Shown: positions 11,999 to 51,595, counted from the first letter of the stretch. The stretch: DNA of 64,000 nucleotides from Escherichia coli (GCF_046105845.1 NZ_CP151004.1), one strand, 5' to 3'. Notes: a model not told the origin generated them from the letters alone. Numbers and translations are program-made.

Positions 11999-12007
11999 AG
12001 TTCGTCC

Positions 12008-12526: not shown

Positions 12527-12540
12527 GAAGATTTCCTTTG

Positions 12541-13209: not shown

Positions 13210-13218
13210 GTCTCACCC

Positions 13219-14883
13219 TTAGTCAATTTCGTTGGGATCAAGTGCACCGGGAATATTTTTGATCTCTTCCCAGCGTTCCCCTTGCAGGCGGTAACCTGTA
13301 GCCGGTCCGGCGTAATCATTGACGTCATTGACCGCAGAGAGCACTTGTCCGTCATCGACGATGATGGCTGAGGTATGGAGATAATCGCCGGTCAGTTTTG
13401 CTTTTTGCATGTTGAGCATGTCCTGGGCGACATCGGTAAAACCGCCTTGCGCCAGGGCTTTCACCACTTCCAGGCTGTTCCGGTTTTTATTGATAATCTC
13501 CTGGGCGAACTTGATGTCTTCCACAATATTGCGCTCAGGCATATCTTTTGAACCGTGGGCATAGGTTGCCGCTTCGACTTCTTCATCGGTAATAGGCGGT
13601 AGTCCCATACCGGCAAAGACAGCCTGTAAAGCGCGAGCGGCTTTATTGCGGATAGCGATAACATCTTCTTCGCGTACTGGTCGCAGGCCGCCATCAACCT
13701 TCAGGTCACGCTGAATGACGTTGTAATCATCGAAGTCTTCAGCATCTTCGTTTGAACCAGCAAACATGTTGTCATAGTTCGGCACAGCGGAAAAACCGGA
13801 AGAGATAAAGTCGGTACCTGGCAGAAACTGCATCAGGAAACGTGCGGTACGGCGCATATCCGAGTGGGTAAAGGTCTGGTCATTACTGGAGGCGCATTCC
13901 AGATCCAGCGATGAGCAAATTAAGTTTTCCGCTAATACTGCGCGGATGCCTGATGGCACAGCTGATGGAACACCGATGCAGCTTACCGAACCATTCTGCA
14001 GGCCCTGAACGCCTGCGGCTTTGGTGATGTAAATGCAACGAGCCTCGAGATAAAGCATTGATTTGCCTTCCGCGTAACCCATCTGTACTTCAGAGCCGGA
14101 GCCGGAAGTAAAGCGCATTTTTAAGCCGCGAGACGCATAGGATGACGCGAGAAATCCTTTTGACCACGGGGTGTCATCGCCATCGGTGAAAACAGGTTCT
14201 GTACCATAGACAGAAATTGTTTCGGCGTAACAGGTGTGGCCTAACATACCGAGTTTCAGTTCGGTGGCTTCTTCCAGTGAACACTGGGTCAAGACGCCCG
14301 GACGTCCCACCTGTGAGCCGACCAGCAGGGCGATGGCGTTGAACGGGGCATAGCGAGCAACGGCAACGGTGGTTTCCTGTTCATCAAACCCGCGCCATGC
14401 GCCTTCAGCTGCGTCGGCGGCAATTTGTACCGGGTTATCTTTGACGTTGGTGACGTGAGCCTGTTGTGATGGTGTTCGACGGGCGCGCATTTTCTGCATC
14501 GCCATCATCATCTCTACCACGTTCATCAGCGAAACAACTTCGACGATTTTTGCAGGCGTCATTGCTGTGGTAAGGGGAACGATATTGCTACGTTTGACAT
14601 TTGGATCGCACAACATATTGGCAAGTTTTACCGAATCCATCGCGATGACTTCTTCTGCGCGCGCGAGATTGATGCCGTAGCGGGCGATAAAGTGGTCGAT
14701 CAGGTCAAACTGGCTGGCGGGTTTTCCATCCAGTTCGGTAACGACGCCGTTAACAATTTTGATTGATGGTTTAGGATCGTTCGGGCTTTCCATCGCAATG
14801 AAGCCTTCTTCAATCCACTCTTTAACGAAACCGTCCTGGTTGACCGGGCGTTTTGCCAGTGCTTCAAATCTTTTCGATCTCAT
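13219..14883 (-). CDS. pduC: PduC B12-dependent diol dehydratase large (alpha) subunit
   Basis: 554 aa beginning MRSKRFEALAKRPVNQDGFVKEWIEEGFIAMESPNDPKPSIKIVNG, matching the diol/glycerol dehydratase alpha family. Confidence 0.92.
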   Translation of the reverse strand: MRSKRFEALAKRPVNQDGFVKEWIEEGFIAMESPNDPKPSIKIVNGVVTELDGKPASQFDLIDHFIARYGINLARAEEVIAMDSVKLANMLCDPNVKRSNIVPLTTAMTPAKIVEVVSLMNVVEMMMAMQKMRARRTPSQQAHVTNVKDNPVQIAADAAEGAWRGFDEQETTVAVARYAPFNAIALLVGSQVGRPGVLTQCSLEEATELKLGMLGHTCYAETISVYGTEPVFTDGDDTPWSKGFLASSYASRGLKMRFTSGSGSEVQMGYAEGKSMLYLEARCIYITKAAGVQGLQNGSVSCIGVPSAVPSGIRAVLAENLICSSLDLECASSNDQTFTHSDMRRTARFLMQFLPGTDFISSGFSAVPNYDNMFAGSNEDAEDFDDYNVIQRDLKVDGGLRPVREEDVIAIRNKAARALQAVFAGMGLPPITDEEVEAATYAHGSKDMPERNIVEDIKFAQEIINKNRNSLEVVKALAQGGFTDVAQDMLNMQKAKLTGDYLHTSAIIVDDGQVLSAVNDVNDYAGPATGYRLQGERWEEIKNIPGALDPNEID

Positions 14884-14901
14884 AAATCTGCCTCAGAGAA
14901 T

Positions 14902-15714
14902 TCAGATGTAGGAAGGGCGATCGTTTTTCGGTGTATCGCCGAGAGTCGAAAGCACGGTTTTACCGATTTCGCGTGCAGAGATGACCGCCTGGCGGACTGC
15001 GCCGGAGTCACCCGAGATAATCAGAATGACTTCATTGCTGTAGCTGGTGCCTTGAGCGGGGGAGCTGTATGCCACAACATCCACATTGGCGGACTTCAGC
15101 GCGGTGTCGGCCATCAGAACACCCACAGCAGCCGGAGCGCCGACAATAACGCCGCAAGCCCGTCCCAATGGTGCACCAAACGCTTTTTCCAGTGCATAGC
15201 TGGCGCGGGCGGTATATTGCAGCTCAAGATGTCCGGCTTCGTTGGCATAGACATCGCCAAAGGTCCGATCGAGTTCTTTCAGGGCGACTTCAATACCGCG
15301 TTTCACGTCGGAAACATCGTTGCCACCTAAGAGGATCAATGAGCCATGTCCGGCACCGCCTTTAGTATCCCGAGGAAGTTCAATGCTAATAACTTCAGTG
15401 TTGGTGGCTTTTACCGCTTCATCAGCGGCCATAATGTGTGGCCCTGCGCCAATACGCGCACCCAGAATGCCAATGGAACGATAGCGTTTTTCAAGTTTCA
15501 TTGCGTCCAACAGGGCGCTATCAACGTTCGCAATGACCAGACCTACAGTGTCGCCAATAGCGGTGCCAACAAATTCTGTTAACGTGCAGCTTTTTTCTGC
15601 CATAGCCGTCTCTCGTATTTGATGAGTGGTTTTCGGGAGAACCTCATGCTCTGGCGTCGCTACGCGAGCGATGACCTGCGCCATGATCTGTTTGACCAGT
15701 TCATTGCTGCTCAT
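14902..15714 (-). CDS. pduB: PduB microcompartment shell protein (tandem BMC, trimer type)
   Basis: 270 aa; position between pduA and pduC. Confidence 0.9.
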
Positions 15715-15995
15715 GGGTTAATTCCCTTTGGTAAGATTTTTTCGACATCGGTATGTGGGCGGGGAATAATGTGCACGGCTTTTACTTCGCCGACGTTACG
15801 CGCAGCTGCGGCACCTGCGTCTGTTGCCGCTTTTACCGCCCCGACATCACCACGAACGATGACGGTCACCAGCCCGGAACCTATTTTTTCGTAGCCGACC
15901 AGCAAAACATTTGCCGACTTCACCATGGCGTCTGCGGCCTCTATGGCGGCAGTTAAGCCTTTGGTTTCTACCATTCCTAACGCTTCTTGTTGCAT
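15711..15995 (-). CDS. pduA: PduA major microcompartment shell protein
   Basis: 94 aa; [57 protein letters not shown] is a canonical BMC domain; first gene of the minus-strand operon. Confidence 0.92.
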
Positions 15996-16506
15996 AAAGA
16001 CCTCGCCTGGATTTTTTTGACGATATGACTATAAAAAAAAACGAGGAAAAAGAATGGCTGACTTAATCGGCTAATCAGAAAAATTAATAGAGAACAAATA
16101 TTATAAAATTGCTTTTATGAACTATATGTTGTTAATTTATTAGTTGTTTTGTGGATATTTCAATGTGAATTAATTGCGTTGGCTAGTGAGTTTAATCGCG
16201 AGTAATATTTCGTTGAGTTTGGTTCGAGGAAGGAACTGTGATATTTGTTTCAATTTTATTATGTCATGATGGCAATTTTTTACTGTAAAAGTTTGGTGGA
16301 AATTATTACTTTCAACACTGATTAACGCTGTGTTGCATGATTCGGCAATGACAATAATTTGTTATGTTAGCACGATTTTTACACGAGTCTGTCATGCATG
16401 TTAGCAATATTTTCTGCAGAGCAATTTTTTATAGTTGCGCTCGATATACACAACAATCAGCGCATAGTTGGCTGATAAAGAAAAACTCCGTAAAGAAGGT
16501 GTCACT
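15996..16506. promoter_or_regulatory. Divergent AT-rich control region between pduA (minus) and pduF-pocR (plus)
   Basis: About 510 bp without coding potential, strongly AT-rich, between two divergently oriented gene starts; corresponds to the PocR-controlled pdu promoter region in Salmonella. Confidence 0.6.
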
Positions 16507-17316
16507 ATGAATGATTCACTCAAGGCGCAATGCGTTGCCGAGTTTTTGGGCACCGGACTGTTCCTCTTTTTTGGCATTGGTTGTTTGTGCGCCCTGAAAC
16601 TTGCCGGGGCAAGTCTGGGACTGTGGGAAATTTGTATCATTTGGGGGTTAGGGATTTCGCTTGCTGTTTACCTTACGGCAGGTATTTCCGGCGCTCATCT
16701 CAACCCGGCTGTTACCATTGCTCTGTGGCTGTTTGCCTCTTTCCCTGCCCGTAAAGTGCTGCCATTTTGTGTGGCGCAATTAGCGGGTGCCTTTGGTGGT
16801 GCGGTTCTGGCATATTTTCTCTACAGCAGTTTGTTTACCGATTTTGAATCTGCTCACAATATGGTGCGTGGTAGTGCAGAAAGTTTACAACTCGCCAGTA
16901 TCTTCAGTACTTATCCGGCAGCGGCGATTAATGTATGGCAAGCTGCGTTGGTCGAAGTGGTCATAACGTCCATGTTAATGGGGTTGATTATGGCGTTGAC
17001 CGATGACGGTAATGGCGTACCCAAAGGACCGCTTGCGCCTTTACTTATTGGTATTCTGGTTGCTGTTATTGGTGCTTCTACCGGACCATTAACCGGTTTT
17101 GCCATGAATCCAGCGCGTGATTTTGGACCTAAAATTTTCACCTGGCTTGCGGGTTGGGGGGAAATTGCGATGACTGGTGGACGCAATATTCCTTATTTCA
17201 TTGTACCCATTATTGCACCGATCATTGGCGCATGTGTTGGTGCGGCGATTTATCGCTATCTCATTGCAAAGAATTTACCTGTCAATAGTGTAACGCCTAA
17301 AGAAATTAGCGAATAA
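16507..17316 (+). CDS. pduF: PduF propanediol diffusion facilitator (MIP/aquaglyceroporin family)
   Basis: Internal ATG gives MNDSLKAQCVAEFLGTGLFLFFG; NPA motifs (HLNPAV and MNPARD) present; the supplied ORF carries an upstream extension. Confidence 0.9.
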   Translation: MNDSLKAQCVAEFLGTGLFLFFGIGCLCALKLAGASLGLWEICIIWGLGISLAVYLTAGISGAHLNPAVTIALWLFASFPARKVLPFCVAQLAGAFGGAVLAYFLYSSLFTDFESAHNMVRGSAESLQLASIFSTYPAAAINVWQAALVEVVITSMLMGLIMALTDDGNGVPKGPLAPLLIGILVAVIGASTGPLTGFAMNPARDFGPKIFTWLAGWGEIAMTGGRNIPYFIVPIIAPIIGACVGAAIYRYLIAKNLPVNSVTPKEISE

Positions 17317-17518
17317 CGAAATAATCTGGCAGTTATAAACGTTTATTTTTTTACTGTTTGTGATCTGCTTTCCGAACTTATTAAAAAGTCTCCCGCTTCA
17401 CGGAGGCTTTTGTTATTGTCCTTTGTGCTTCTCGTCAGTAAATCATCAGGGATGATGTGAAGATTAAATGTAAAACAATTGTTTTGCTATAACAATAAAT
17501 TAACTGGGAGGTTTTATC

Positions 17519-18433
17519 ATGATTTCTGCGGCGACACTTAATTCAGAACTCATTAATAAAATCGCGCAGGATTTTGCGCAGGCGACCAGCCTTGCGGTTG
17601 TCGTGGTCAATATTCACGGCGATGAAATTTCCGAGCTGTTTAACTTCACTCCATTTTGTCAGATGATGCGGCAACACCCTCAGCTAAGCACTCGATGTCG
17701 CATGAGCGATCGTTGTGGGGGCTTGGAAGCCTCTAAATCCGATCAGCCTTGTATTTATCGCTGTCATGCCGGATTAACCGATTTCTCTATTCCACTGGTA
17801 ATCGCCGGGCATTTAGTCGGTTTTGTATTGTGCGGGCAAGTTCGTCTGCGTAATGATGATGTCGATTTGGTCGATATTCTGAATGTCGATGATTGCTGGC
17901 AGGCAGATCCCGAATTACTTAATGAATTCCGCAAAGTTCCTGAGATGGATTACTCAAGAGTTATGGCCTCTGCTGATTTGTTGAAGTTGATTGTGGAAAA
18001 TTGCCTCAAAAAACAACTCAATTTTGTGGTTATTAAAGAGAACAAATCTCAGTCAGATTCGGTGCGCCAGACTCGTGCGCCTAATCCCCACGACAATAAA
18101 ATGAAAAAAGCTTTACGCTATATTGATGCGCATTTATCAGACGATTTGCGTCTGGAAGATGTCGCCTCACACGTTTATCTAAGCCCTTATTATTTCAGTA
18201 AGTTATTTAAGAAATACCATGGAATCGGGTTTAATGCGTGGGTAAACCAACAACGGATGGCCAGCGCTCGTGAGTTACTGTGCCATAGTGACTGGAGCAT
18301 CGCCAGCATTGCGCGTAATTTAGGTTTTTCACAAACAAGTTATTTTTGCAAAGTTTTCCGTCAGACTTATCAGGTTACGCCGCAGGTGTATCGACAGCAA
18401 GTGAGTGATAATGCGGCGATGGAAACGGTATAG
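17519..18433 (+). CDS. pocR: PocR, AraC-family activator of pdu/cob genes
   Basis: 304 aa; C-terminal AraC-type HTH region (LRYIDAHLSDDLRLEDVASHVYLSPYYFSKLFK); position after pduF. Confidence 0.9.
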   Translation: MISAATLNSELINKIAQDFAQATSLAVVVVNIHGDEISELFNFTPFCQMMRQHPQLSTRCRMSDRCGGLEASKSDQPCIYRCHAGLTDFSIPLVIAGHLVGFVLCGQVRLRNDDVDLVDILNVDDCWQADPELLNEFRKVPEMDYSRVMASADLLKLIVENCLKKQLNFVVIKENKSQSDSVRQTRAPNPHDNKMKKALRYIDAHLSDDLRLEDVASHVYLSPYYFSKLFKKYHGIGFNAWVNQQRMASARELLCHSDWSIASIARNLGFSQTSYFCKVFRQTYQVTPQVYRQQVSDNAAMETV

Positions 18434-18534
18434 AGTAAATGCCCCAAAAAAAGAGGACGGTTTAAATAAACTCTGCAATGAATAATTAACGTTATTTACC
18501 TGTTATGGGAAAAGTGAAATCAGCTCATAACATA

Positions 18535-18790
18535 CGCTGACAGGTGTGGCACATTTGTGCCTGGGAAGAGGGTGAAAATCCCTCGCAGCCCCCGCTGCTG
18601 TAATGCTGACAAACCCGAAAATGCCACTGATCGCGAGATTGGGAAGGTCGGGAGAGGATGACGCTAAGCCAGAAGACCAGCCAGTCAGTCAATACCAACA
18701 ACTTCGGTGGGAAGTGGGTTGCCCGGAAGCGTCCGGTAGAGTACCGGCGCGTCTTTATACCCCTACCACCCTGAAAGGATCAGGGTATGG
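18535..18790 (+). promoter_or_regulatory. Cobalamin (AdoCbl) riboswitch, leader of the former cbi operon
   Basis: Conserved aptamer core ggtgtggc...gcctgggaagagggtgaaaatccctcgcagcccccgctgctgtaatg...gccactg and B12-box-like taagccagaagaccagcc at 18666-18683; downstream stem accctga/tcagggt can sequester the aagga ribosome-binding site before the ATG at 18787. Confidence 0.8.
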
Positions 18791-18921
18791 CGGCATCATT
18801 TAGTTCTTTCATCGCAGTGCCGACAGGCACCAGGGCTGCACTTAAGGTGTGGCAATCTTGTTTCATGGCTCATCAACCAGACCGCCATTACAGGAAACTA
18901 AGTGGAGGGCGAGAGGCATGA
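18787..18921 (+). pseudogene. 44-codon mini-ORF, possible decayed 5' end of cbiA
   Basis: Starts MAA directly after the riboswitch, as cbiA does in Salmonella, but diverges after a few residues; stop TGA overlaps the next ATG (ATGA). Confidence 0.3.
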
Positions 18922-19355
18922 AAACGATAAAACCCGAATCGATAGCTCTTTTTTGCCTCTTATCTGGAGATGTGGATCTGGCGAAATATCTGGCTGAAAT
19001 ATTGCCAATAACCTGTTTTGTTGGTGAGGACTGGCAGCAAGATTTCCAGCCTCTTGATGGTGGGTCTGTGCAATCGTTATCAGATGTGTATGGCGATTAT
19101 TCAGTGCTGCTATTGATAGCAGCTGAAAGCGAGATATCCGTACCAGAATGGCTCGCTCATTCTGAAGGAACGACGGTAATTGTGATTGCAGAACACAATG
19201 CCCGTTTGCTGACTGGTCCGGCTGGTGGGGCTGTAGCATTGATCCATTATCTGAATGAAATCTGTCATTCCAGAGAAACCGCTGTCAATGACGCATTTTG
19301 TCGTACGTTAACACGAGGAAGTCTGGCTATTCCGCAATGCCATCTTCTTTCGTAA
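18918..19355 (+). CDS. Hypothetical protein, 145 aa, no family recognised
   Basis: ORF with ggaggg ribosome-binding site 8 nt upstream of ATG 18918; start overlaps the stop of the preceding mini-ORF; lies between the riboswitch and cobU. Confidence 0.4.
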   Translation: MKTIKPESIALFCLLSGDVDLAKYLAEILPITCFVGEDWQQDFQPLDGGSVQSLSDVYGDYSVLLLIAAESEISVPEWLAHSEGTTVIVIAEHNARLLTGPAGGAVALIHYLNEICHSRETAVNDAFCRTLTRGSLAIPQCHLLS

Positions 19356-21926: not shown

Positions 21927-22853
21927 ATGATGCGTCGTGTAAATATTTTTTGGTCATTTGCTCTACTTTTTGCCAGCCATAATAGCCTGGCGGTAACTTA
22001 TCCATTACCTCCAGAGGGTAGCCGTTTAGTGGGACAGTCGCTTACTGTAACTGTTCCTGATCACAATACCCAGCCGCTGGAGACTTTTGCCGCACAATAC
22101 GGGCAAGGGTTAAGTAACATGCTGGAAGCGAATCCGGGCGCTGATGTTTTCTTGCCGAAGTCAGGCTCGCAACTCACCATTCCGCAGCAACTGATTTTGC
22201 CCGCCACTGTTCGTAAAGGGATTGTGATTAACGTCGCTGAGATGCGTCTTTATTACTACCCACCAGACAGTAATACTGTGGAGGTTTTTCCTATTGGTAT
22301 CGGCCAGGCTGGGCGAGAAACCCCGCGTAACTGGGTGACTACCGTTGAACGTAAACAAGAAGCACCAACCTGGACGCCAACGCCGAACACCCGGCGCGAA
22401 TATGCGAAACGAGGGGAGAGTTTGCCCGCATTTGTTCCTGCGGGGCCCGATAATCCCATGGGGCTGTACGCGATTTATATTGGCAGGCTATATGCCATCC
22501 ACGGTACCAATGCCAATTTTGGTATTGGGCTCCGGGTAAGTCAGGGCTGTATTCGTCTGCGCAATGACGATATCAAATATCTGTTTGATAATGTTCCTGT
22601 AGGTACTCGTGTTCAAATTATTGATCAGCCAGTGAAATACACAATGGAACCGGATGGTTCAAAGTGGCTGGAAGTTCATGAGCCGCTGTCGCGCAATCGT
22701 GCAGAATATGATTCTGACCGAAAAGTGCCATTGCCGGTAACCCCATCTTTGCGGGCGTTTATCAACGGGCAAGAAGTTGATGTAAATCGCGCAAATGTTG
22801 CGTTGCAACGTCGATCGGGAATGCCTGTGAATATCAACCGTAACGGATTTTGA
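21927..22853 (+). CDS. ldtA: L,D-transpeptidase LdtA (ErfK)
   Basis: 308 aa with signal peptide; YkuD-type catalytic motif [20 protein letters not shown]. Confidence 0.92.
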
Positions 22854-23014
22854 CATTCAAAACGTCTGGTTTGTCGGTCTGTGTAAGCATTCCGTCATGC
22901 AGAACAGGTTGTTTCGAATCATACAAATGATAATTTTCTTCTCATATGCGCATCTCTTATGAGCATAAACGTTATACTCTTCTGATTTATACATGTTTGC
23001 GGATGACATGATCA

Positions 23015-23992
23015 ATGGAAAAGAGAATGACGAAACAGAATAAAAACAGCCGTTGGCAGGGTTACGATCCTCGTTACATATACTCGCTCGTGGTCAGACG
23101 CTATTTTGCGGATATGAAAACCAAGATTGAGATTGCTGAGGAGCTTGGCGTTTCCCGCTTTAAAGTTGCCAGATTGATCGATGAGGCGATCGAACAGGAT
23201 TACGTGAGGTTTATCTTCCCTAAGCAGCAAGCGATGGATGAAGAAATCGCCAATAATCTACGGAAAAAATTTCATCTGGAAGATGCAATTGTTCTTTCAG
23301 TTGCTGAATCATGGACGACGCAAGAAGAACTCAATCACAAATTGGGTGAAGTCACCGCTGAATATCTTACGCAATCTCTTCATGAAGGTATGAAAGTGGG
23401 GATCGCCTGGGGACGTGTATTATCAAGTACGGTCAGTAAGTTGAGCAAGCTGCCTCCTTTAGACGTTGTGCAGTTATCTGGCGTACATCCGGGGATTGAG
23501 TTTAGTCAAGGGCCAATAGATCTTATTCATAAGATCGCTGCCATTTCGCAGGGAAAAGCGCACCCAATGTACGTGCCGATGTGGGTCGATGACGAAGAGC
23601 TTGCTGCCAGACTGGCAGGTGATCCTGCGGTATTAGATACACAGCAATATTACTCACAGTTGGATGTGGTTATCACCGGGATAGGTGACTGGAAATCAGG
23701 TTCTTCAAGCTTGTGTAAAATATTTCCGGATACCTGGTGCGAAGCTTTGTTTCAACAAGATATCGCTGCGGATGTGTGTATCTCGTTGGTCAGCAGGGAA
23801 GGGAAGATTCTTCATAGTCCTATTGAACGTCTGGGATTTGGCATTTCGACGGATCAACTACAAAAAGCCAAAAAAGTGATTGGTGTCGCCGGAGGGGAAG
23901 AGAAATATGAAGGCATTCTTGCTTCGCTGAAATCTGGACTTTTGAATGTCTTAATTACTGATTTTGATACGGCCATTAAACTTCTGGATTAA
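23015..23992 (+). CDS. SorC/DeoR-type sugar-binding transcriptional regulator
   Basis: 325 aa; N-terminal HTH (KIEIAEELGVSRFKVARLIDEA) and C-terminal sugar-phosphate-binding domain (VGIAWGRVL...VIGVAGGEEK). Confidence 0.8.
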   Translation: MEKRMTKQNKNSRWQGYDPRYIYSLVVRRYFADMKTKIEIAEELGVSRFKVARLIDEAIEQDYVRFIFPKQQAMDEEIANNLRKKFHLEDAIVLSVAESWTTQEELNHKLGEVTAEYLTQSLHEGMKVGIAWGRVLSSTVSKLSKLPPLDVVQLSGVHPGIEFSQGPIDLIHKIAAISQGKAHPMYVPMWVDDEELAARLAGDPAVLDTQQYYSQLDVVITGIGDWKSGSSSLCKIFPDTWCEALFQQDIAADVCISLVSREGKILHSPIERLGFGISTDQLQKAKKVIGVAGGEEKYEGILASLKSGLLNVLITDFDTAIKLLD

Positions 23993-24009
23993 TAGCCGTA
24001 TCTGTGAAG

Positions 24010-24038
24010 AAAGGGCAGTACCGCTGATTCTGCCCTTT
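24010..24038. terminator. Bidirectional hairpin between convergent regulator and PTS IIA gene
   Basis: Inverted repeat aagggcag...ctgccctt followed by tttaattt. Confidence 0.55.
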
Positions 24039-24043
24039 TAATT

Positions 24044-24502
24044 TCAGGATGCTGCGAGCGTATCCTCTACATATTTAGCCACGCGCGTTGCAGGTAAATT
24101 GCGGCAAGTCTCAACAAAGGCGTTATCCTGAAACAGTGTGAATAAACGACGCAATATCGACATATGTTGATCACTGGTGGCAAATGCCAGGTTAAACATA
24201 ATGCTACAATCAACTGTTAAAGCAGCATCTTCCATCTGTCCGAAAGTGACATCATTGGAGAAACGAACAATACTGATGCTGTTTACATTTACCAGCGTGT
24301 AATCGGCATGGGGAATGGCGATACCCTGACCGTTTGCCATCATTAATCCTGTCGGATAGCTTTTTTCACGTTCCAGACAGGCGTCAATGTATTCTGCAGT
24401 GATGTAGCCTTTTTCCAATAATTGCGTACCAGCAAAGGTGATCGCCGTTTGATAGTCGTTGATGCTGTTATCAACATCATTTACCAGAATTTCAAATTTC
24501 AT
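24044..24502 (-). CDS. PTS EIIA component (fructose/mannitol/galactitol type 2 family)
   Basis: 152 aa; conserved histidine context GQGIAIPHADYT typical of EIIA-2 domains. Confidence 0.8.
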   Translation of the reverse strand: MKFEILVNDVDNSINDYQTAITFAGTQLLEKGYITAEYIDACLEREKSYPTGLMMANGQGIAIPHADYTLVNVNSISIVRFSNDVTFGQMEDAALTVDCSIMFNLAFATSDQHMSILRRLFTLFQDNAFVETCRNLPATRVAKYVEDTLAAS

Positions 24503-24512
24503 TGCACACCTG

Positions 24513-24797
24513 TTATTTCAGTATCTCTTCTTTAACTGCAGCGAAAATCTCATCTTCGCCCAGACCAGTCAGTAATCCAGCGCCAACGATGACACGAGTA
24601 GTAATGGCCGGGTTATCGAGTTTGGTCGATGAAACCACCAGGTCATAGCTGTTGAAGGTATCGCTGGTGCATGCCATTAACGAAGATTTATCGACTTGCG
24701 CTTCAATTTTCTCTTCTTTCAGTAAGTCCTGCAGTACAGAGACCATGATGGAAGATGAGGCAATTCCGTTTCCGCAAACTACTAAGATTTTTTTCAT
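24513..24797 (-). CDS. PTS EIIB component (galactitol/lactose-type)
   Basis: 94 aa; N-terminal MKKILVVCGNGIASSS with phosphorylatable cysteine. Confidence 0.8.
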   Translation of the reverse strand: MKKILVVCGNGIASSSIMVSVLQDLLKEEKIEAQVDKSSLMACTSDTFNSYDLVVSSTKLDNPAITTRVIVGAGLLTGLGEDEIFAAVKEEILK

Positions 24798-24820
24798 TTG
24801 ATTATTCCTCTGTAAAAGAT

Positions 24821-26191
24821 TTAAAGCGCTTTTTCTAAATCCGTTTCAATCTGGCGACGTGATTTTTGTTTAATTAAGTATCCAATAGATAACAAAAGGA
24901 TACCTGCCATCACATAGCCAATGATTCCAACATGGCTCAGGGCGGCAAACAGACCAGTAAATGGATTCGCAGACGGGTTAAGCGAAGAGTACATCACGCT
25001 GGCATCCGGGTTTGTACCAAACTTCTGGAAGACTTCGTTGGTAGCCGGTGCCATCCACGATGCAATATACAGACCACCACCGAACAAAATGATCGAGGTC
25101 ACCCAGGTGCGAATAATGTTGCCATTGAAAACAGGCACCATGCAGGCAATGAAAAACACAAACTGAGAGAGGTCACCCAGTGGCATAACGCGGTTGCCGG
25201 GCAAGATCACTGCGAGGATCACAATCACCGGGATCAGTAATAATGCCGGGGCGATAACTGACGGATGACCCACAATCAGGGCAGTGTCCATTCCAACAGT
25301 GATTTGACGATCCGGGAAACGTTTGACCAGTTTTTTGCGTGCCACGTTGGAAAGCGGAACAAGCCCTTCCATCATGATAGAGGTCATACGTGGCAACAGA
25401 AGCATGACTGCAGCCAGATACATCCCTAACTGTAGGCTGGCAATTATGGTGTGGTAGGGGGATTTCCAGCCATAACCACAAAAGCCCAACAAAATACCAA
25501 TAATAAAACCAACCATAGTTGGATCGCCCAGAATGCCAAACCGTTTTTGAATAGTTTCGGCGGTCACATTCAGATTACGGAAGCCTGGGATGCGATCATA
25601 AATCCAGTTGAATGGATAAGCGAAAAGTAAGTAGGTATTGGCAACCGGGTGAGAGATCGCAACACCTTTTGGCAGGTTAAAGAATTTTTCGTTATTTTTA
25701 GCACCGAGATCGGCAGCGATCAGCGCCCAGACATGGAATAGCGCGGCGGTCAATGCGCCATACAGGAAGCTACCAGAATAGACGCCAACAATTGCCCCCA
25801 TTGACGCATTTTGATGAAGGTTGAAAACATCAACGTTAACACAGTCAGTCAGGCGGGCGACCAGCATTGCAATATTTACCGCAACACAGAGGGGAATAAT
25901 GATAGCGCCCATGCTGGAGCCAAATCCCATCACTGCAGTCGCTGCGCCACCAACATCGATGGCACTGAGCGAGGAACCTGTTGCTTCTGCTAATCCGGTG
26001 ACTGCCGGTTGCATTTTTTCCAGCATCAGTTTGATGGTCATGGTTAGCGCAATGAAACCAATGCCGACTTTGATGGCGGAGGAGATACATTCTGAAAGAG
26101 GACGGCCAAGTATCTTCATCAGTACCAGAAAGATGACCGGGATAAATATAAAATTTCCCAGATCGTTTATAAATTGCGTGATCAGTTCCAT
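24821..26191 (-). CDS. PTS EIIC permease, galactitol (GatC) family
   Basis: 456 aa polytopic membrane protein; resembles GatC/SgcC-type EIIC. Confidence 0.8.
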   Translation of the reverse strand: MELITQFINDLGNFIFIPVIFLVLMKILGRPLSECISSAIKVGIGFIALTMTIKLMLEKMQPAVTGLAEATGSSLSAIDVGGAATAVMGFGSSMGAIIIPLCVAVNIAMLVARLTDCVNVDVFNLHQNASMGAIVGVYSGSFLYGALTAALFHVWALIAADLGAKNNEKFFNLPKGVAISHPVANTYLLFAYPFNWIYDRIPGFRNLNVTAETIQKRFGILGDPTMVGFIIGILLGFCGYGWKSPYHTIIASLQLGMYLAAVMLLLPRMTSIMMEGLVPLSNVARKKLVKRFPDRQITVGMDTALIVGHPSVIAPALLLIPVIVILAVILPGNRVMPLGDLSQFVFFIACMVPVFNGNIIRTWVTSIILFGGGLYIASWMAPATNEVFQKFGTNPDASVMYSSLNPSANPFTGLFAALSHVGIIGYVMAGILLLSIGYLIKQKSRRQIETDLEKAL

Positions 26192-26194
26192 ACA

Positions 26195-26731
26195 TTAACC
26201 CTCAGATTTTTCATCATCTGGTCGGAAACCCATATTCCAGCGTACATCAGCGGGCTTAACCAGCAATGCATTATCGTTACGTTCAGCTTCTAGTAAGTTC
26301 TTTTTAGAATTTTCTCTGGCGGTGGTGAAGTCGAATGGGTTATCCAACCATGCATCGACAATCATTTTGCTGTATTCGAGATCGTTGACCCGGCAACCCA
26401 GTCCAATAACTTGTGCGTTATTGCTGAGTCGCGCCCGCTTTGCGGAGTAGGGGTTAGTAACCGCAACGGCTCTTATGCCCCAGTGTTTGTTGATCTGACA
26501 AGTAAAGCCAATGCCAGTCCCACAAATGTAAATTCCCAGACGGCACTCATCGCGTTGAATAATGCCTGCCATTTCGTCGGCTAGACGCGCGAAGTTATTG
26601 ACACCTTGTTCCTTACATGTGACGGGATCGTACACGATCTCCATGTTTTTCTCTTCTATGAGGTATTTTTTTATCTCCTCTTTACGTGCAAAACCTACAT
26701 CATCGCTTGCGATAGCAATCTTCGTTTTCAT
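26195..26731 (-). CDS. RpiB/LacAB-family sugar-phosphate isomerase with C-terminal extension
   Basis: 178 aa; motif GIYICGTGIGFTCQINKHWGIRAVAV resembles the RpiB active-site region; first gene of the minus-strand PTS operon. Confidence 0.75.
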   Translation of the reverse strand: MKTKIAIASDDVGFARKEEIKKYLIEEKNMEIVYDPVTCKEQGVNNFARLADEMAGIIQRDECRLGIYICGTGIGFTCQINKHWGIRAVAVTNPYSAKRARLSNNAQVIGLGCRVNDLEYSKMIVDAWLDNPFDFTTARENSKKNLLEAERNDNALLVKPADVRWNMGFRPDDEKSEG

Positions 26732-27079
26732 TTCATTTTGCCTGTCGTTAAGTAACTAAAGCCAAGTATGCTGTTGGTAAATATTGGTTGTCAATTGAGA
26801 TCTAAATCACAAAATTTATAACTGATTGATTTTTATGATAAAAAAAACCAATAAAAACAAATAAAAAATAAATTAAGCCAATTGAGACAAATTGGGATTG
26901 TACAGTGGCGTTGTAATGAATAATAAAAACTCATTTATTATCAATCGGATATATGGTTTTTGAACTATTGTCTTTATTGGGTTTATTTGTACTTTCCACT
27001 GTTAGTGTTTGTTTTTGTTTGCATCATCTGTGCTATGCTTGGCGTTTTCTAAGATGGGTAATAGATTTCAGGAGGAAGG
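26732..27079. promoter_or_regulatory. AT-rich divergent control region between the minus-strand PTS operon and the DeoR-family regulator gene
   Basis: About 350 bp, very AT-rich, no coding potential, flanked by divergent gene starts. Confidence 0.5.
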
Positions 27080-27835
27080 ATGTATCTGGTTGATGAAAGG
27101 CGAAAGTTAATACTTGAAGACTTAATGTCGGCAGGTACGGTCTATGTCAGTGATCTTGCACGAAAGTATGAAGTAACGTATGAGACCATCAGGAAAGATT
27201 TGACCCATCTTGAACAAAAAGGGCTGCTGATCAAAAGCCATGGTGGGGCGACTTTAAAGCAAAGGGCCATAGAGCATCCCTTTCAGGTCAGGGAAAAAGA
27301 AAATAACTCTTATAAGAAGGCGATAGCTCGTAAAGCGCTTGATTTCATTCCGCCTAATAGTTCGATGATTATCGGTACGGGCAGTACCACTTTTGAGCTG
27401 GCTAACCTGTTATGTATGAAGTCTGGGTTTAAAATCTTCACAGATTCGCTCCCCGTTGCCAGTGTGTTGATTGAATCTGACAATCAGGTTTTTCTCTTTG
27501 GCGGCGAACTGCGTAGAAAGAGTTCCTCAGTGTTTGGGGGGTGGGCGGTATCTATGATCAACGATATACATGTTGATCTCTGTTTCATTGGAACCGACGG
27601 TTTTAGTAACATGACTGGTCCATCGACGCCTTCTTCTTCTGATGCGTTTTTGGATCGCACGATAATTTCGCACTCAGACAAAAAATATATCCTCGGTGAT
27701 TACACCAAGTTTGAGCGCAGCAGTTTGTTTAAGATCTGCGACTGGTCGGAGATCACCGCCCTTATTACCAACGATCATGCCGACAAAGAGGGGATTGCCG
27801 AAGTCGCAAAATACACGTCAGTAATAACCTGTTAG
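27080..27835 (+). CDS. DeoR-family transcriptional regulator
   Basis: 251 aa; N-terminal HTH (VYVSDLARKYEVTYETIRKDLTHLEQKGLL) and C-terminal DeoR sugar-binding domain. Confidence 0.85.
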   Translation: MYLVDERRKLILEDLMSAGTVYVSDLARKYEVTYETIRKDLTHLEQKGLLIKSHGGATLKQRAIEHPFQVREKENNSYKKAIARKALDFIPPNSSMIIGTGSTTFELANLLCMKSGFKIFTDSLPVASVLIESDNQVFLFGGELRRKSSSVFGGWAVSMINDIHVDLCFIGTDGFSNMTGPSTPSSSDAFLDRTIISHSDKKYILGDYTKFERSSLFKICDWSEITALITNDHADKEGIAEVAKYTSVITC

Positions 27836-28010
27836 AACTCACTACGACACGCCTTCTCTCTTCGAATCAGCTTTGCCAAATGTAATCATTTCATAATTAT
27901 CAAGTGAGCATCCATGGCGATGCTTGCTTAGCGCCCTCTATTGAATACATCCTCTACATATTGCCAGTTTCACTTCATTTTTAGCGACGAAATCATTTTT
28001 TGAATCACGA

Positions 28011-28152
28011 TTTGCTCATATGAGCGTAAATAGTGTCGCCATTATGTGATTTTTTGTGATCTGGATTTAATTTCTCAGATCTCGTCATTTGTCCACAGGA
28101 TCGTTGTGCTATAACTGCTCATATGAAGGTTGTTCAATGCTCATGTGAGCAT
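28011..28152. promoter_or_regulatory. Three palindromic operator-like sites upstream of the plus-strand PTS operon
   Basis: tgctcatatgagcg (28013-28026), gctcatatga (28117-28126) and aatgctcatgtgagcatt (28137-28152) share the inverted-repeat core GCTCAT-ATGAGC. Confidence 0.5.
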
Positions 28153-28172
28153 TGGGGGTGAGGGGGAAGGAT

Positions 28173-28616
28173 ATGATATCGATCAGTGTTGCCGATGGTG
28201 CGGGACTACAGAACTACGATGCCGTGCTTGAACATATTTATAACACGCATCGTGAAACGAATACGGTGAAAGAGAGCTGGCTCAATGCTATGCGTAAACG
28301 CGAAGCGGAATATCCGACAGGAATAGAACTGGAAGGTTATTCTATCGCTATACCACACTGTGATAGTGAACATGCGAATCAACCGGCTATTTACATCATC
28401 CGTCTGCCAGACGCAATACCTGTGAACAGGGCTGATGAAGATGGAATATTGTGGGTCAGACTGGTCGTTAATATCATTGTTACGGATCCTGCTGACCAGC
28501 TTCGATTGTTAAAGTCATTATTTAACCATCTCCAAAATGAAGAATTCTACCAAAACTTACTGACACTTCCCGTCGAGGATGCAAAAGCACTTTTTGTATC
28601 CAGGATAATCCAATAG
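28173..28616 (+). CDS. PTS EIIA component (type 2 family)
   Basis: Probable start at second ATG (ggaagga ribosome-binding site); conserved histidine context YSIAIPHCDSE. Confidence 0.8.
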   Translation: MISISVADGAGLQNYDAVLEHIYNTHRETNTVKESWLNAMRKREAEYPTGIELEGYSIAIPHCDSEHANQPAIYIIRLPDAIPVNRADEDGILWVRLVVNIIVTDPADQLRLLKSLFNHLQNEEFYQNLLTLPVEDAKALFVSRIIQ

Positions 28617-28634
28617 TAAAAACTGGAGTTTATT

Positions 28635-28928
28635 ATGATTAATATTCTTGTTGCTTGTGGTAGCGGTGTCGCTACATCTACGCTTGCTGCTGATGAAGTG
28701 AAGTCAGTATGTGCTGAATATGGTATTACGGCATTTAAAATCAACAAATGCAGTATGGCTGAACTTTCTTCTGAGATGGCTCATGCAGATATTGTACTCA
28801 CAACTAATAATTATAAAGGTGATATTGGGAAACCACATATGAGCGTTGCAGGTTTTGTAACGGGTATTAATGAAGGAGCATTACGCAAGAAATTAGGAGA
28901 GTTATTAACTGAATTAGCAAATAGCTAA
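28635..28928 (+). CDS. PTS EIIB component (galactitol-type)
   Basis: 97 aa; MINILVACGSGVATST with phosphorylatable cysteine. Confidence 0.8.
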   Translation: MINILVACGSGVATSTLAADEVKSVCAEYGITAFKINKCSMAELSSEMAHADIVLTTNNYKGDIGKPHMSVAGFVTGINEGALRKKLGELLTELANS

Positions 28929-28948
28929 ACCTGACAGGAATAATAAAA

Positions 28949-30202
28949 ATGGAAATGTTGAAAAATTTAATGGAAACAATCACCGGAATGGGGGCGACTG
29001 CAATACTGCCGCTGGTGATATTTATTTTAGGTCTGGTGTTCAGAATGAAACCAGGTGCCGCGATCAAGTCGGGCATCACCGTCGGTATTGGTTTTATTGG
29101 TTTAGGTTTAGTTGTTGGTTTATTAAATAGTTCATTACAGCCAGCTATCGAGTATTACTCAAAAGTAGGCAGTGGTTTTACGGTTGCAGATATTGGTTGG
29201 CCAGCAGTCGGTGCGGCTGCATGGGTAGCACCTTTTGCCGCATTAGTGATACCAGTTGGCATCGTACTTAACCTGATTCTGGTGCGCCTGAAATTAACCA
29301 AAACGTTAAATGTTGATATCTGGAACTATATGCATTTTTTAGTTCCGGGCGCTCTGGCATATTTTGTGTTCGACAGTTTTATCATCGGCTTCTCTGTCGC
29401 GGTGGCTTTGAGTATTGCGGCCCTGTTTATTGGCGATTTGATTGCGCCCAGATGGCAAAAATATTATGGACTCGAGGGAACAACCTGTACCACGATGATT
29501 CATATCGGCTGGACTCTACCGTTCGCCTGGGTAGTAAATAAAATCATTGATTACATCCCTGGGTTAAATAAGTTAGATGTTGACTTAAACAGTGTGCAAA
29601 AACGCCTGGGTGTCTTTGGTGAACCTGCAATTATCGGTGTTATCGTTGGCGCATTACTCGGAGTTTTAACGAAACAGGCAATTACCACAATTGTTCCCAT
29701 GGCGATGGGGGTTGCTGGTGTAATGGTATTGTTACCTAAAGTGGTCGGTGTGCTGATGGAAGGTCTTAACCCGATTGGGAAAAGTGCCAAAGAAATCATG
29801 CAAAAACAGATGGGTAAAGATGCTGAATTAAACATCGGTATGGATTGTGCACTGGCGTTGGGGGATCCGGCGACGGTCACCGTGACAGTCATTACCATTC
29901 CTTTAACTATGCTATGTGCTCTGGTATTGCCTGATATTAAGATCTTCCCAATTGGCGTATTGATGTCAATTATTTATATGACCACCATGACCGTAATGGC
30001 GAGCAACGGTAACGTGATTCGTTCGATTATCTCGACCTTGTTATTCTGCGTTGTAGTGATGTATTTAGGCGGTTATGTCGCACCAGGGGCAACGCAATTT
30101 TTAGCTGGAGCCGGTGTAGGCTTGCAAGGACAAGGTACTGATTTTGTATTAACCGGCCCGTGGGAAATTTTAACCTATTGGTTGAGCACCGTATTACATT
30201 GA
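28949..30202 (+). CDS. PTS EIIC permease, galactitol (GatC) family
   Basis: 417 aa polytopic membrane protein of GatC/SgcC type. Confidence 0.8.
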   Translation: MEMLKNLMETITGMGATAILPLVIFILGLVFRMKPGAAIKSGITVGIGFIGLGLVVGLLNSSLQPAIEYYSKVGSGFTVADIGWPAVGAAAWVAPFAALVIPVGIVLNLILVRLKLTKTLNVDIWNYMHFLVPGALAYFVFDSFIIGFSVAVALSIAALFIGDLIAPRWQKYYGLEGTTCTTMIHIGWTLPFAWVVNKIIDYIPGLNKLDVDLNSVQKRLGVFGEPAIIGVIVGALLGVLTKQAITTIVPMAMGVAGVMVLLPKVVGVLMEGLNPIGKSAKEIMQKQMGKDAELNIGMDCALALGDPATVTVTVITIPLTMLCALVLPDIKIFPIGVLMSIIYMTTMTVMASNGNVIRSIISTLLFCVVVMYLGGYVAPGATQFLAGAGVGLQGQGTDFVLTGPWEILTYWLSTVLH

Positions 30203-30224
30203 TTTAATAATCTGGAGTTTTAAC

Positions 30225-30869
30225 ATGGCAAAAATATTACCTTCTATATTTGGCGCGGATATTTTACGCCTGAAAGATGAAATTCATTTTCTGGAAGAGG
30301 AACAAACCGAAATATTGCACGTTGATTTAATGGATGGCACTTACGTCAGTAATATTGCCTTTGGCCCAAATCAAATTGCAGCAATGAAAAAAGCCAGTTC
30401 GATGATCTTTGACGTGCATATGATGCTGGCAAATCCTGAGCGACATATTGATGATGTAATCAATACCGGGGCGGAGATGATTTCTGTACATTATGAGTCG
30501 ACGCCACATGTGCATTATATTATTCAAAAAATCAAAAAAGCGGGGCGCAAAGCAGGTGTTGTGCTTAATCCTGGGACACCTGAATCTGTCATCGAGTATT
30601 TATTAGATGATATTGATTATATATTGTTAATGACAATTAATCCGGGGCAACTAGGCCAGACATTTATTCATAAAAGCCTGGAGAAAATCCGTAACACCAA
30701 AAAATTGATATCTGGCAGAGATATTCAAATTGAAGTGGATGGTGGCGTTAATCTTGATAATGTGAAACAAGTTAAAGAAGCGGGGGCTGACCTTATTGTT
30801 GTTGGCGGTGCATTATTTAACAAACAGCCTCATGAAAGTTATCAGGCATTAAAAATCGCTGTTCAGTGA
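30225..30869 (+). CDS. Ribulose-phosphate 3-epimerase family protein (ketose-phosphate 3-epimerase)
   Basis: 214 aa; N-terminal LPSIFGADILRLKDE matches the RPE SILSAD signature region; metal-binding His/Asp residues present. Confidence 0.8.
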   Translation: MAKILPSIFGADILRLKDEIHFLEEEQTEILHVDLMDGTYVSNIAFGPNQIAAMKKASSMIFDVHMMLANPERHIDDVINTGAEMISVHYESTPHVHYIIQKIKKAGRKAGVVLNPGTPESVIEYLLDDIDYILLMTINPGQLGQTFIHKSLEKIRNTKKLISGRDIQIEVDGGVNLDNVKQVKEAGADLIVVGGALFNKQPHESYQALKIAVQ

Positions 30870-30964
30870 TCATAATCTAAAAATTTTACATCCAGCTAAG
30901 TGAGGTTTTCGATTTCATATCGGGAGGAAAACCCCAACTAAAAAGTCTTTAATGGAGAAAAGTA

Positions 30965-31717
30965 ATGAGTAATTTTGCAGGTAAAGTGGTTTTAGTTACC
31001 GGAGGTGCTCACGGTATTGGCAAAGGGATAGCTAAACAATTTGCTGATCGTGGTGCACATACTGTTATTGTTGACTATAACGAAGAGAACGGCAAGGCCA
31101 CTGCAGCAGAGTTAACTTTTGGCGATGTTAAATCGCTGTTTGTTAAAACAGATGTCTCCGATCCACAGGCATTAGTGGATGTACGGGAAAAAGTATTTGC
31201 TACCTTTGGTCGTATTGATGTGTTGATATTAAATGCCGGTGTGGCATTTGCCAATAAAGTTAACAATATTTCTTTTGAGGAATGGAATAAGACTATCGCA
31301 ATTAACTTATCGGGATTATTTAATACCGTTAAGGCATTTTATGATGATTTCCTGACAAATAAGGGATCTATTGTTTATATCTCATCGGGATCAGCGCTTT
31401 CGGGGACTGGGGGCGGCGTGAGCTATCCTGCCAGTAAAGCGGGAGGCGAAGGATTGATTCGTGGTCTGGCAAAAGAGTTAGGACCAAAAGGCGTAAATGT
31501 TAATGCGATTGCTCCCCGCTTAATAGACACCGGAGATATGATGCGGGTCAACTATCCAACACAAGCCGATTTAGACGCTGTCCTGGAAAAAATACCCGTC
31601 CGTCGTCTGGGGACTATCGATGATGTGGCTAACCTGGCAATATTTTTGGCAGATAAAGATAACTCTTATATTCAGGGACAAACCATTTTAATGGATGGTG
31701 GCCGGACTATTGCTTAA
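30965..31717 (+). CDS. Short-chain dehydrogenase/reductase (SDR) family oxidoreductase
   Basis: 250 aa; Rossmann motif VTGGAHGIGKG and catalytic YPASK. Confidence 0.85.
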   Translation: MSNFAGKVVLVTGGAHGIGKGIAKQFADRGAHTVIVDYNEENGKATAAELTFGDVKSLFVKTDVSDPQALVDVREKVFATFGRIDVLILNAGVAFANKVNNISFEEWNKTIAINLSGLFNTVKAFYDDFLTNKGSIVYISSGSALSGTGGGVSYPASKAGGEGLIRGLAKELGPKGVNVNAIAPRLIDTGDMMRVNYPTQADLDAVLEKIPVRRLGTIDDVANLAIFLADKDNSYIQGQTILMDGGRTIA

Positions 31718-31732
31718 AAAGGGAGAGGAAAA

Positions 31733-32293
31733 ATGAGTGTTCAGGAAAATACTCTTAATATTCTGCATGAATTAGAGAGTAATGCACTGAAGATTGACGA
31801 TGCTCAGGCTGCACAGTTTATTTCGCAAATCAGAAATGCCCGGCATATTTTTTTGCAGGGAGCTGGGCGCAGTGGCATTGCTATTCGCGCTTTTGCTAAT
31901 CGCTTGCTGCATTTAGGTTTTTCAGTAAGCGTTGTGGGAGAAATATCATCACCGCATACCCAACCTGGAGATCTATTAATTATTGGGTCAGGCAGTGGTG
32001 AAACTACCAGTTTAAAAAGTCTGGCACAAAAAGCAGTTGATAGCGGAGTAAACGTAGCTCTGGTAACTATGAAAGCAGATTCGACGATCGGTAAATTAGC
32101 TCAATCTGTGTTGGTACTACCAGGAAGTGTGAAAGACGATAACAATCGTGTTGCAGGCGCTTTCGCACAACCAATGGGATCGGCTTTTGAGCAGCTCTGC
32201 TTTATTACTTATGATGCAATTGTTCTGGAGTTGATGTCTGAACTGGGTGAAAGCAGTGCCACAATGTTTACCCGACACGCTGATCTGGAATGA
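31733..32293 (+). CDS. SIS-domain sugar-phosphate isomerase (6-phospho-3-hexuloisomerase-like)
   Basis: 186 aa; SIS-domain features (FLQGAGRSG ... LLIIGSGSGETT) and size typical of PHI-type isomerases. Confidence 0.7.
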   Translation: MSVQENTLNILHELESNALKIDDAQAAQFISQIRNARHIFLQGAGRSGIAIRAFANRLLHLGFSVSVVGEISSPHTQPGDLLIIGSGSGETTSLKSLAQKAVDSGVNVALVTMKADSTIGKLAQSVLVLPGSVKDDNNRVAGAFAQPMGSAFEQLCFITYDAIVLELMSELGESSATMFTRHADLE

Positions 32294-32317
32294 CCAAAGA
32301 GTTGGTAATTAGAAAGT

Positions 32318-32346
32318 AAAAAGCCTGCTTGAAAGCAGGCTTTTTT
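32318..32346. terminator. Bidirectional rho-independent terminator between the SIS gene and tRNA-Asn
   Basis: aaaagcctgcttgaaagcaggctttttt: perfect hairpin flanked by A-run and T-run. Confidence 0.8.
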
Positions 32347-32351
32347 GAATT

Positions 32352-32427
32352 TGGCTCCTCTGACTGGACTCGAACCAGTGACATACGGATTAACAGTCCG
32401 CCGTTCTACCGACTGAACTACAGAGGA
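32352..32427 (-). tRNA. asnV: tRNA-Asn (anticodon GUU)
   Basis: Reverse complement is the 76-nt E. coli tRNA-Asn TCCTCTGTAGTTCAGTCGGTAGAACGGCGGACTGTTAATCCG...GAGGAGCCA. Confidence 0.95.
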
Positions 32428-32752
32428 ATCGTGTGAACGGGGCGCATATTAATGGCAGTGCATGGTGATGTCAAAGGGTGAAATGCATTTTTTTGTTTGT
32501 TTGCTGTCAATTTCAACAAAGTGGTGAGCTTTCAATCTTATTGGTAATGAACCATCGTGGTGCATACCCTCCTTTTATGGGGCAGGGGAACGCGACAGCT
32601 GATAAAAAGAGCCAATGACGAACCTATCATAATCTCTTATTTGACAGTTGGTTAGCTTGTACATCAACGCCAAAATAAAACTGGCAAGCATCTTGCAATC
32701 TGGTTGTAAGTAATGGCGGCACTTGGGCCGATTCTTAAAAACCGGAGGCAAC

Positions 32753-42982: not shown

Positions 42983-51595
<8,613 letters not shown>

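Follow-up and report, generated by a model that had tools for sequence, protein, structure and literature searches.

Does a low-GC block that lies beside a tRNA gene owe its place to that gene? The question is raised by a stretch of 64,000 nucleotides (nt) of Escherichia coli DNA (GCF_046105845.1, NZ_CP151004.1; hereafter the window), in which a cassette of about 9.5 kb carrying two sets of phosphotransferase system (PTS) genes, here called the PTS island, is found between ldtA and the tRNA-Asn gene asnV. An earlier note on this DNA had described it as an insertion at 22854-32351 that abuts the 3' end of the tRNA, the classic site for island integration, and had proposed that its mobility functions were erased or else that it arrived by homologous replacement. 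We consider it likely that the block is a non-mobile catabolic cassette, inserted once, long ago and non-site-specifically, which persists as a polymorphism shuffled by homologous recombination. This reading is built on the anatomy of the block, its junctions, its distribution and diversity and its lack of mobility signatures, all of them observed directly; the block is a feature of a known kind, and an ordinary one.

The order of the locus is cobU-cobS-cobT-ldtA, island, asnV, nac, cbl, asnU, yeeO and asnW. The PTS island holds 12 metabolic and regulatory genes, and as the earlier note had stated there is no integrase or transposase among them (Pfam and NCBIfam profiles on the 12 open reading frames (ORFs), RefSeq annotation of homologous loci). 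Its GC content is 42.8% against ~49% in the left flank, a difference of 6 points, and non-coding DNA amounts to 1,085 nt only, the largest gap being 348 nt. Four proteins of the island region have exact sequence matches in E. coli records.

The comparison across genomes by which the note had proposed to define the empty site does define it. In the alignment to strain AMSCJX04, used as the empty-site reference, homology stops at 22829, inside ldtA and after the codons for ...SGMPV, and restarts at 32297; moreover, matches of empty genomes to window positions 32100-32500 begin at query position 199-202, that is, at 32298-32301 of the window. The insertion of about 9.5 kb is thus real, being a variable low-GC block absent from most E. 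coli, while its borders are 22830 and 32296 and not those first given. The tRNA-Asn gene was confirmed by ARAGORN and Rfam where the note had placed it; the claim that the block ends 5 bp from its 3' end did not hold, since the right border had been set 55 nt too far. The last base of the island lies 3 nt past the stop codon of hxlB, the 3' end of the tRNA is 55 nt away, and the core of the attachment (att) site in the tRNA is untouched. The 55 bp between island and tRNA (32297-32351) recur almost unchanged in E. albertii and in E. coli with an empty site, and in Citrobacter farmeri ldtA has a homologous hairpin after it. They hold a terminator at 32318-32345, common to asnV and to ldtA or hxlB, and asnU has a similar one. 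These 55 bp are native backbone and not island DNA, and because they stand beside the tRNA as backbone in empty-site genomes, the block does not abut the tRNA. It is close to asnV because no more than 55 bp separate ldtA and asnV, and this is not evidence of tRNA-targeted integration.

The distribution of the block was studied in 5,426 complete E. coli genomes using the island alone as BLAST query. The full island was found in 225 genomes and partial copies in 56 (281 in total), and the empty site in at least 4,704. As a rule each of the 281 had one match, always chromosomal and never on a plasmid of that collection. All 281 match from query position 1 and thus share the same left end, so that the block arose only once. 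Among the 56 partial copies the right-hand deletions are nested (1-5682, 1-3452, 1-2425, 1-2055, 1-1158, 1-456, 1-244 and 1-61 of the query); the deletion endpoint is an insertion sequence (IS), IS1 or IS3, in the four remnants examined (CP61_Sichuan, ES3, Ec1120 and DAX4), where the same deletions also took part of a neighbouring integrase island at asnV. The block is therefore being eroded in some lineages.

Sequence diversity and linkage were analyzed in nine full-island loci and four remnants against 6-7 empty loci. Pairwise differences are at most 2.7% in the island, 3.6% in the left flank (cobU to ldtA) and 2.9% in the right flank (tRNA to cbl), and island-positive strains do not cluster in either flank. 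The mean allele-frequency difference between carriers and non-carriers is 0.07-0.14 in the 350 bp beside the left junction, and the only fixed differences are one site in cobU (19718) and a single-base indel at the right junction. Since the island is as diverse as its flanks and the single-nucleotide polymorphisms (SNPs) of the flanks are unlinked to it, the polymorphism is an old one which recombination has uncoupled from its neighbours. Homologous replacement, the second of the two routes offered in the earlier note, is thus supported as the way of exchange within E. coli: the same left end in all 281 genomes, a breakpoint in ldtA, identical junctions and, in the loci sampled, flank-like diversity and unlinked SNPs are as expected for a core-flanked block exchanged by homologous recombination. 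Such exchange is known at a related site from the high-pathogenicity island (HPI) at asnT, whose transfer from one E. coli strain to another takes flanking DNA along and depends on recombination by RecA, as demonstrated both experimentally and phylogenetically (PMC2606025).

The history that we propose would start with a single, old, non-site-specific insertion into an Escherichia chromosome, past the stop codon of ldtA and before the native terminator shared by ldtA and asnV, outside both the tRNA-Asn gene and its integrase att core. The block would have persisted in E. coli as a presence/absence polymorphism, now in ~4-5% of complete genomes, by vertical inheritance together with exchange between lineages through RecA-type homologous recombination in the flanking core DNA, and would have been eroded in some strains by IS1- or IS3-bounded deletions.

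Variation was also seen to the left of cobU, where pdu or a PduV pseudogene is present in all 13 island or remnant loci sampled and IS4 with cobalamin-biosynthesis pseudogenes in the six empty-site loci that had enough left flank; SNPs between these two structural variants are still unlinked to island presence. A record that might have indicated plasmid carriage in E. coli, CP088875.1 (strain F17EC0245, pF17EC0245-1, 393 kb), was rejected: it holds the chromosomal order pduF-cobUST-ldtA-island-nac-cbl-yeeO-amn-shiA and no typed replicon, and is probably a chromosome fragment or a misassembly.

At the 3' end of ldtA itself the two alleles differ. After ...PV the island allele ends in NINRNGF and the empty allele in QISSGSRQ(M/I)F, each followed by the stop codon, in a region (after SGMPV) which is hypervariable across Enterobacteriaceae. 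The island-linked tail is identical in 19 of 24 nt to that of E. fergusonii ldtA (NINRTAF), and tails of the NIN or NIS type are the rule in Citrobacter, Klebsiella and Kluyvera, with K. aerogenes and some Citrobacter matching the NIN(R) type. E. albertii has a homologue of the empty-type tail (QINSESGKML), followed there by the same spacer, terminator and tRNA-Asn, and the Q-I type was found solely in E. albertii and E. coli. No intermediate joining the NINRNGF tail to an empty site was found in the 5,426 genomes with a synthetic junction query (the best matches, 93%, being ordinary empty sites), which means that tail type and island are completely linked. Nothing corresponding to the 31-bp tail of the empty allele was found in the island or in other loci searched, and hence neither allele can be derived from the other by simple deletion. 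The left breakpoint lies in genuine ldtA sequence, as would be expected if exchange makes use of ldtA homology rather than of an att site. LdtA database matches in which a different N-terminus (MNMKLKTLF...) is joined to an E. coli-like C-terminus were taken as chimeric metagenome assemblies and ignored.

These tails bear on the rival that survives best, namely that the ancestor of E. coli, or of Escherichia, already had the cluster and that the empty allele is derived, by deletion or by the spread of an E. albertii-like ldtA-terminator allele. It draws on the sharing of the NIN(R)-type tail with other species while the Q-I type is so restricted, on an island diversity as high as that of the core, and on the loss of the island by deletion now under way in 56 genomes. 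The 31 bp without counterpart speak against it, as does the GC content 6 points below that of the flanks, and the empty arrangement, with homologous tail, spacer and terminator, is that of E. albertii, while in C. farmeri ldtA is directly followed by the homologous terminator; the occurrence of this arrangement in both species favours insertion as the derived state. Furthermore, when a collection with one genome per species was scanned with peptide patterns of the island's HxlB-like protein, the representatives of the other Escherichia species gave no match. An ancestry in the species backbone, which the earlier note had named as an outcome that would refute it, is thus borne out in so far as the haplotype is an old one and other species share both alleles, but not for the empty arrangement, which E. 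albertii also has. On balance we regard an ancestral cluster as unlikely.

A bolder variant, which we hold to be somewhat less probable still, would make the island and the ldtA-tail dimorphism an ancient trans-species polymorphism under balancing or niche-dependent selection. The island would then encode an undescribed PTS route in which a short-chain dehydrogenase/reductase (SDR) makes 3-hexulose-6-phosphate from a rare hexitol phosphate, and HxlB, recruited from the ribulose monophosphate (RuMP) pathway, converts it to fructose-6-phosphate.

In favour of a foreign origin, the same genes are found well beyond E. coli. Members with at least 90% identity, read from the clusters of the island proteins, are E. 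coli plus one Shigella flexneri and one entry labelled 'Enterobacteriaceae bacterium'. At least 11 other Enterobacterales have more distant copies, in chromosomal surroundings that are unrelated, and in every case the cassette has a lower GC content than its flanks. HxlB identity is 74-84% and EIIC identity up to 96% (range per protein 58-96%), with ~75% at the nucleotide level. Two forms can be told apart. The first has seven genes (a SorC-type regulator and the operon of transporter 2) and occurs in Pantoea, Erwinia, Brenneria and Pseudocitrobacter. The second has 12 or 13 genes and occurs in Enterobacter wuhouensis, Citrobacter sp. Cu233, Klebsiella oxytoca, Entomohabitans and Providencia vermicola as well as on Klebsiella and Enterobacter plasmids; in it the SorC-type regulator and the second PTS operon are separated by a nested five-gene module (EIIA, EIIB, EIIC, RpiB and DeoR), and an extra hxlB paralogue is present in the Klebsiella, Citrobacter and plasmid versions. 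An uncultured enterobacterium also carries the cassette. Gene order is identical across genera and the flanking genes differ in each; in nine other genera the nearest ORFs on the flanks have housekeeping or transport functions, and neither an integrase nor a transposase is among them.

Homology across genera begins at ~22905-22925, that is, ~50-70 bp past the ldtA stop, and upstream of the first regulator gene, at ~22950-22995, a conserved motif, ATCTnATGAGC...TATACTCTTTTGA, probably acts as promoter or operator. The copies in Enterobacter wuhouensis and Brenneria have a hairpin of their own after hxlB, whereas the E. coli copy has none and uses the backbone terminator. The 13-gene version on IncFIB/IncFII plasmids of Klebsiella and Enterobacter shows 75% nucleotide identity over 96% of the query, and the plasmid records matching the query number 32 for Klebsiella, nine for Enterobacter and 16 for Pantoea. 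IncF plasmids are thus a plausible vehicle for spread between genera, and the cassette may have been delivered by plasmid. In two cases it lies on the 3' side of a tRNA gene, ~850 bp from tRNA-Gly(CCC) in Enterobacter wuhouensis and 340 bp from tRNA-Thr(CGT) in Brenneria roseae (where the neighbours of the tRNA were taken as proA and proB from position and one weak Pfam match), and no att-like repeats were found at either tRNA beside the cassette.

We can now return to the tRNA. The 3'-terminal 16 nt of asnV (32352-32367, TGGCTCCTCTGACTGG) are the core which true integrase islands duplicate, and strain 22AR0118 displays how such an element is placed: the order is ldtA, intact PTS island, terminator, a 16-bp TGGCTCCTCTGACTGG repeat, an 11-kb element (with IS5, an Rhs element, an 'integrase domain' gene and a tyrosine-recombinase pseudogene) and intact asnV. 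With integration at asnV, an element would thus separate the tRNA from the terminator, and its far end would be marked by a copy of the tRNA 3' end; the PTS island is located on the opposite side of the terminator from such elements. The repeat of 22AR0118, read directly, served as positive control for the repeat search. When the window was searched for the 25-mer of the tRNA-Asn 3' end and for the 16-mer core, allowing up to three mismatches, only its four tRNA-Asn genes matched, and the ldtA-side intergenic region 22854-23014, where the earlier note had suggested looking for a partial copy, contained none. Nor did tblastx and blastn with the 11-kb real asnV integrase island as query reveal an integrase remnant anywhere in the window, in agreement with what the note had said of the block. 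Second islands beside the PTS island are also found in DEF10, where the element is pks/clb (colibactin), and in EC28 and ATCC 8739, which carry other DNA. The contiguous order hxlB-terminator-asnV of the window is kept in 142 of the 225 full-island genomes, the other 83 being without that arrangement.

A decayed tRNA-Asn-targeted island that has lost its integrase and att repeat must therefore be judged highly improbable. It agrees with the atypical base composition and variable presence of the block, with its position near a proven hotspot (83 of the 225 genomes have second islands there) and with the finding that the cassette of two other genera lies beyond the 3' end of a tRNA gene. Insertion is not within the tRNA 3' end, the junction (32296/32297) being past the terminator, and no tyrosine recombinase gene or remnant lies beside the tRNA. 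Integration would have shifted the native terminator to the ldtA side, as in 22AR0118, and here it still stands between tRNA and island; there is no copy of the 16-nt core, and the left breakpoint falls in genuine ldtA coding sequence. An erasure of mobility functions is unsupported, because the island lies beyond the terminator, lacks a repeat and, with so little non-coding DNA, has no room for an integrase remnant; the premise that nearness to the tRNA reflects integration at the classic site fails on the same geometry of terminator and att core.

Insertion by an IS element, a composite transposon or another transposition that left no trace is scarcely credible either, for although an ISNCY transposase directly follows hxlB on a K. 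pneumoniae plasmid and IS1, IS3 and IS5 are active at the locus in several E. coli strains, no IS, inverted terminal repeat or target-site duplication is present at either border (in the window and nine full-island loci), a generic repeat search of 22500-32700 found no direct or inverted repeat bracketing the island, and 31 bp of the target were replaced, not duplicated, which is not what an IS-bounded composite transposon does.

As for its predicted function, the island encodes two complete sets of EIIA (PTS_EIIA_2), EIIB (PTS_IIB) and EIIC (EIIC-GAT) of the galactitol (Gat) type. Specificity for galactitol itself is unlikely, because every PTS component falls short of its NCBIfam equivalog or subfamily cut-off (EIIC 350.7 and 322.5 bits against 542.2) and NCBIfam detected no homologue of GatD, GatY or GatZ among the 12 island ORFs; on these scores the substrate is probably not galactitol. 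A formaldehyde RuMP pathway can be set aside because HxlA is absent: an HxlB-like protein is present, and the Rpe paralogue shows only a weak match of 33 bits to the HxlA model (cut-off 200). The SDR gave generic FabG-like matches only among solved structures, from which no substrate can be assigned. The genes would be consistent with import and phosphorylation of one or more polyols by the PTS, oxidation of the polyol phosphate to a keto-sugar phosphate by the SDR, and its conversion to fructose-6-phosphate or pentose phosphates by HxlB, Rpe and RpiB. No description of the island was found in the papers that could be searched, the literature located covering HPI and pks plus one table entry, which gives an enrichment of hxlB in E. 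coli clades linked to necrotizing enterocolitis (PMC4819403). Given that enrichment, a growth phenotype of the cassette could have ecological interest.

The reading of the block as an old, non-mobile cassette exchanged by homologous recombination has several points weighing against it. The E. fergusonii NINR tail leaves room for an old or introgressed island haplotype, so that the polarity of the E. coli alleles may be argued on both sides. The original mode of insertion is deduced from negatives (no target-site duplication, IS or att site), and no donor above ~75-80% nucleotide identity was found. Diversity and linkage were read from the sample of loci given above and not from the full collection. 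Cassettes at the side of a tRNA in two other genera hint at a link with tRNA-proximal hotspots, and the pathway and substrate proposed would follow from gene content.

The coordinates of the features are given in Table 1. EIIA, EIIB and EIIC of transporter 1 form a leftward operon with RpiB/LacAB, and EIIA, EIIB, EIIC, Rpe, SDR and the HxlB-like protein are encoded in a rightward one.

Table 1. Features of the PTS island and its borders (window positions).
Feature	Position	Strand	Evidence and remarks
ldtA (L,D-transpeptidase)	21927-22853	+	up to ...SGMPV common to all E. coli; last 7 codons and stop (22830-22853, NINRNGF) are the island-linked allele
Island-specific segment	22830-32296 (9,467 bp)		alignment to empty-site E. 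coli; replaces 31 bp of the empty allele
Intergenic leader of first regulator gene	22854-23014	+	alignment with 6 other genera
SorC/DeoR-type sugar-binding transcriptional regulator	23015-23992	+	Pfam Sugar-bind PF04198, E=1.3e-49; RefSeq start at 23027
PTS transporter 1, EIIA and EIIB	24044-24502 and 24513-24797	-	PF00359, PF02302; NCBIfam galactitol IIA match below its cut-off
PTS transporter 1, EIIC, galactitol (Gat) family	24821-26191	-	PF03611, E=9e-64; TIGR00827, E=1e-104, below subfamily cut-off
RpiB/LacA/LacB-family sugar-phosphate isomerase	26195-26731	-	TIGR00689, 99.7 bits (cut-off 88.3); PF02502
DeoR/GlpR-family repressor	27080-27835	+	PF00455, PF08220; divergent from transporter-1 operon
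PTS transporter 2, Gat family	28152-30202	+	EIIA 28152-28616, EIIB 28635-28928, EIIC 28949-30202; Pfam/NCBIfam matches
Ribulose-phosphate 3-epimerase (Rpe) paralogue	30225-30869	+	TIGR01163, 232.8 bits (cut-off 212.6)
SDR-family NAD(P)-dependent oxidoreductase, presumed polyol-phosphate dehydrogenase	30965-31717	+	PF13561, PF00106
SIS-domain 6-phospho-3-hexuloisomerase (HxlB-like)	31733-32293	+	PF01380; B. subtilis YckF/HxlB structure 1m3s, E=9e-44; stop codon 3 nt before backbone junction
Native backbone, not island: spacer and bidirectional intrinsic terminator (hairpin 32318-32345)	32297-32351		terminator scan, both strands
tRNA-Asn(GTT), asnV	32352-32427	-	ARAGORN and Rfam; 3' end at 32352, facing the island

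Non-mobile 'metabolic islands' or accessory blocks at integration hotspots of E. coli are a general concept of comparative genomics, and the PTS island resembles them in being a catabolic cassette between core genes, with identical junctions, no mobility genes, presence/absence polymorphism and homologous exchange; it differs in that its left breakpoint coincides with an ldtA 3'-tail dimorphism common to other Escherichia species. The gat operon of E. coli K-12 encodes a GatABC PTS with GatD and GatYZ, and Listeria monocytogenes has a Gat-family pentitol PTS operon with polyol-phosphate dehydrogenases, Rpe and RpiB. Both share with the island separate Gat-family EIIA, EIIB and EIIC, a DeoR-type repressor, a dehydrogenase and Rpe or RpiB feeding the pentose-phosphate pathway, whereas the island has an SDR in place of a zinc-dependent medium-chain dehydrogenase/reductase, HxlB without HxlA, two PTS sets and two regulators.

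The HPI at asnT, pks/clb at asnW or asnV, and the HPI of ECOR31 at asnV, of the integrative and conjugative element type, are like the PTS island in neighbourhood, low GC content and variable presence. These asn-tRNA integrase islands are inserted in the tRNA 3' end, with a P4-like tyrosine integrase beside the tRNA and a direct repeat of 16-17 bp, none of which the PTS island has; like the HPI, it appears to have spread within E. coli via homologous recombination of flanking backbone (PMC2606025).

The locus thus offers a caution, as a low-GC block beside a tRNA need not be tRNA-targeted and the positions of the terminator and of the att core tell the two kinds apart. It has a built-in control, true integrase islands (Rhs/integrase, pks) lying beside the PTS island in about a third of carriers, and it illustrates well how an old accessory cassette is retained and reshuffled through homologous recombination in the asn-tRNA region of E. 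coli, where recombination is frequent.

Elsewhere in the window, a pdu (propanediol) operon is located on the minus strand within 2262-19355, then pduF (16468-17316) and pocR (17519-18433). A cobalamin riboswitch (18525-18699) follows, then an ORF of 168 amino acids ('cobalamin biosynthesis protein' in one related record) and cobUST, with no cbi genes. On the other side, an ORF of 2,895 amino acids (42983-51670, minus strand) adjoins the fourth tRNA-Asn gene (51908-51983) and probably encodes a yeeJ-type giant adhesin, judging by its position. Rfam matches above the gathering score were obtained for two small RNAs, rseX and STnc230, at 62019-62108 and 17375-17458, respectively, both on the minus strand.

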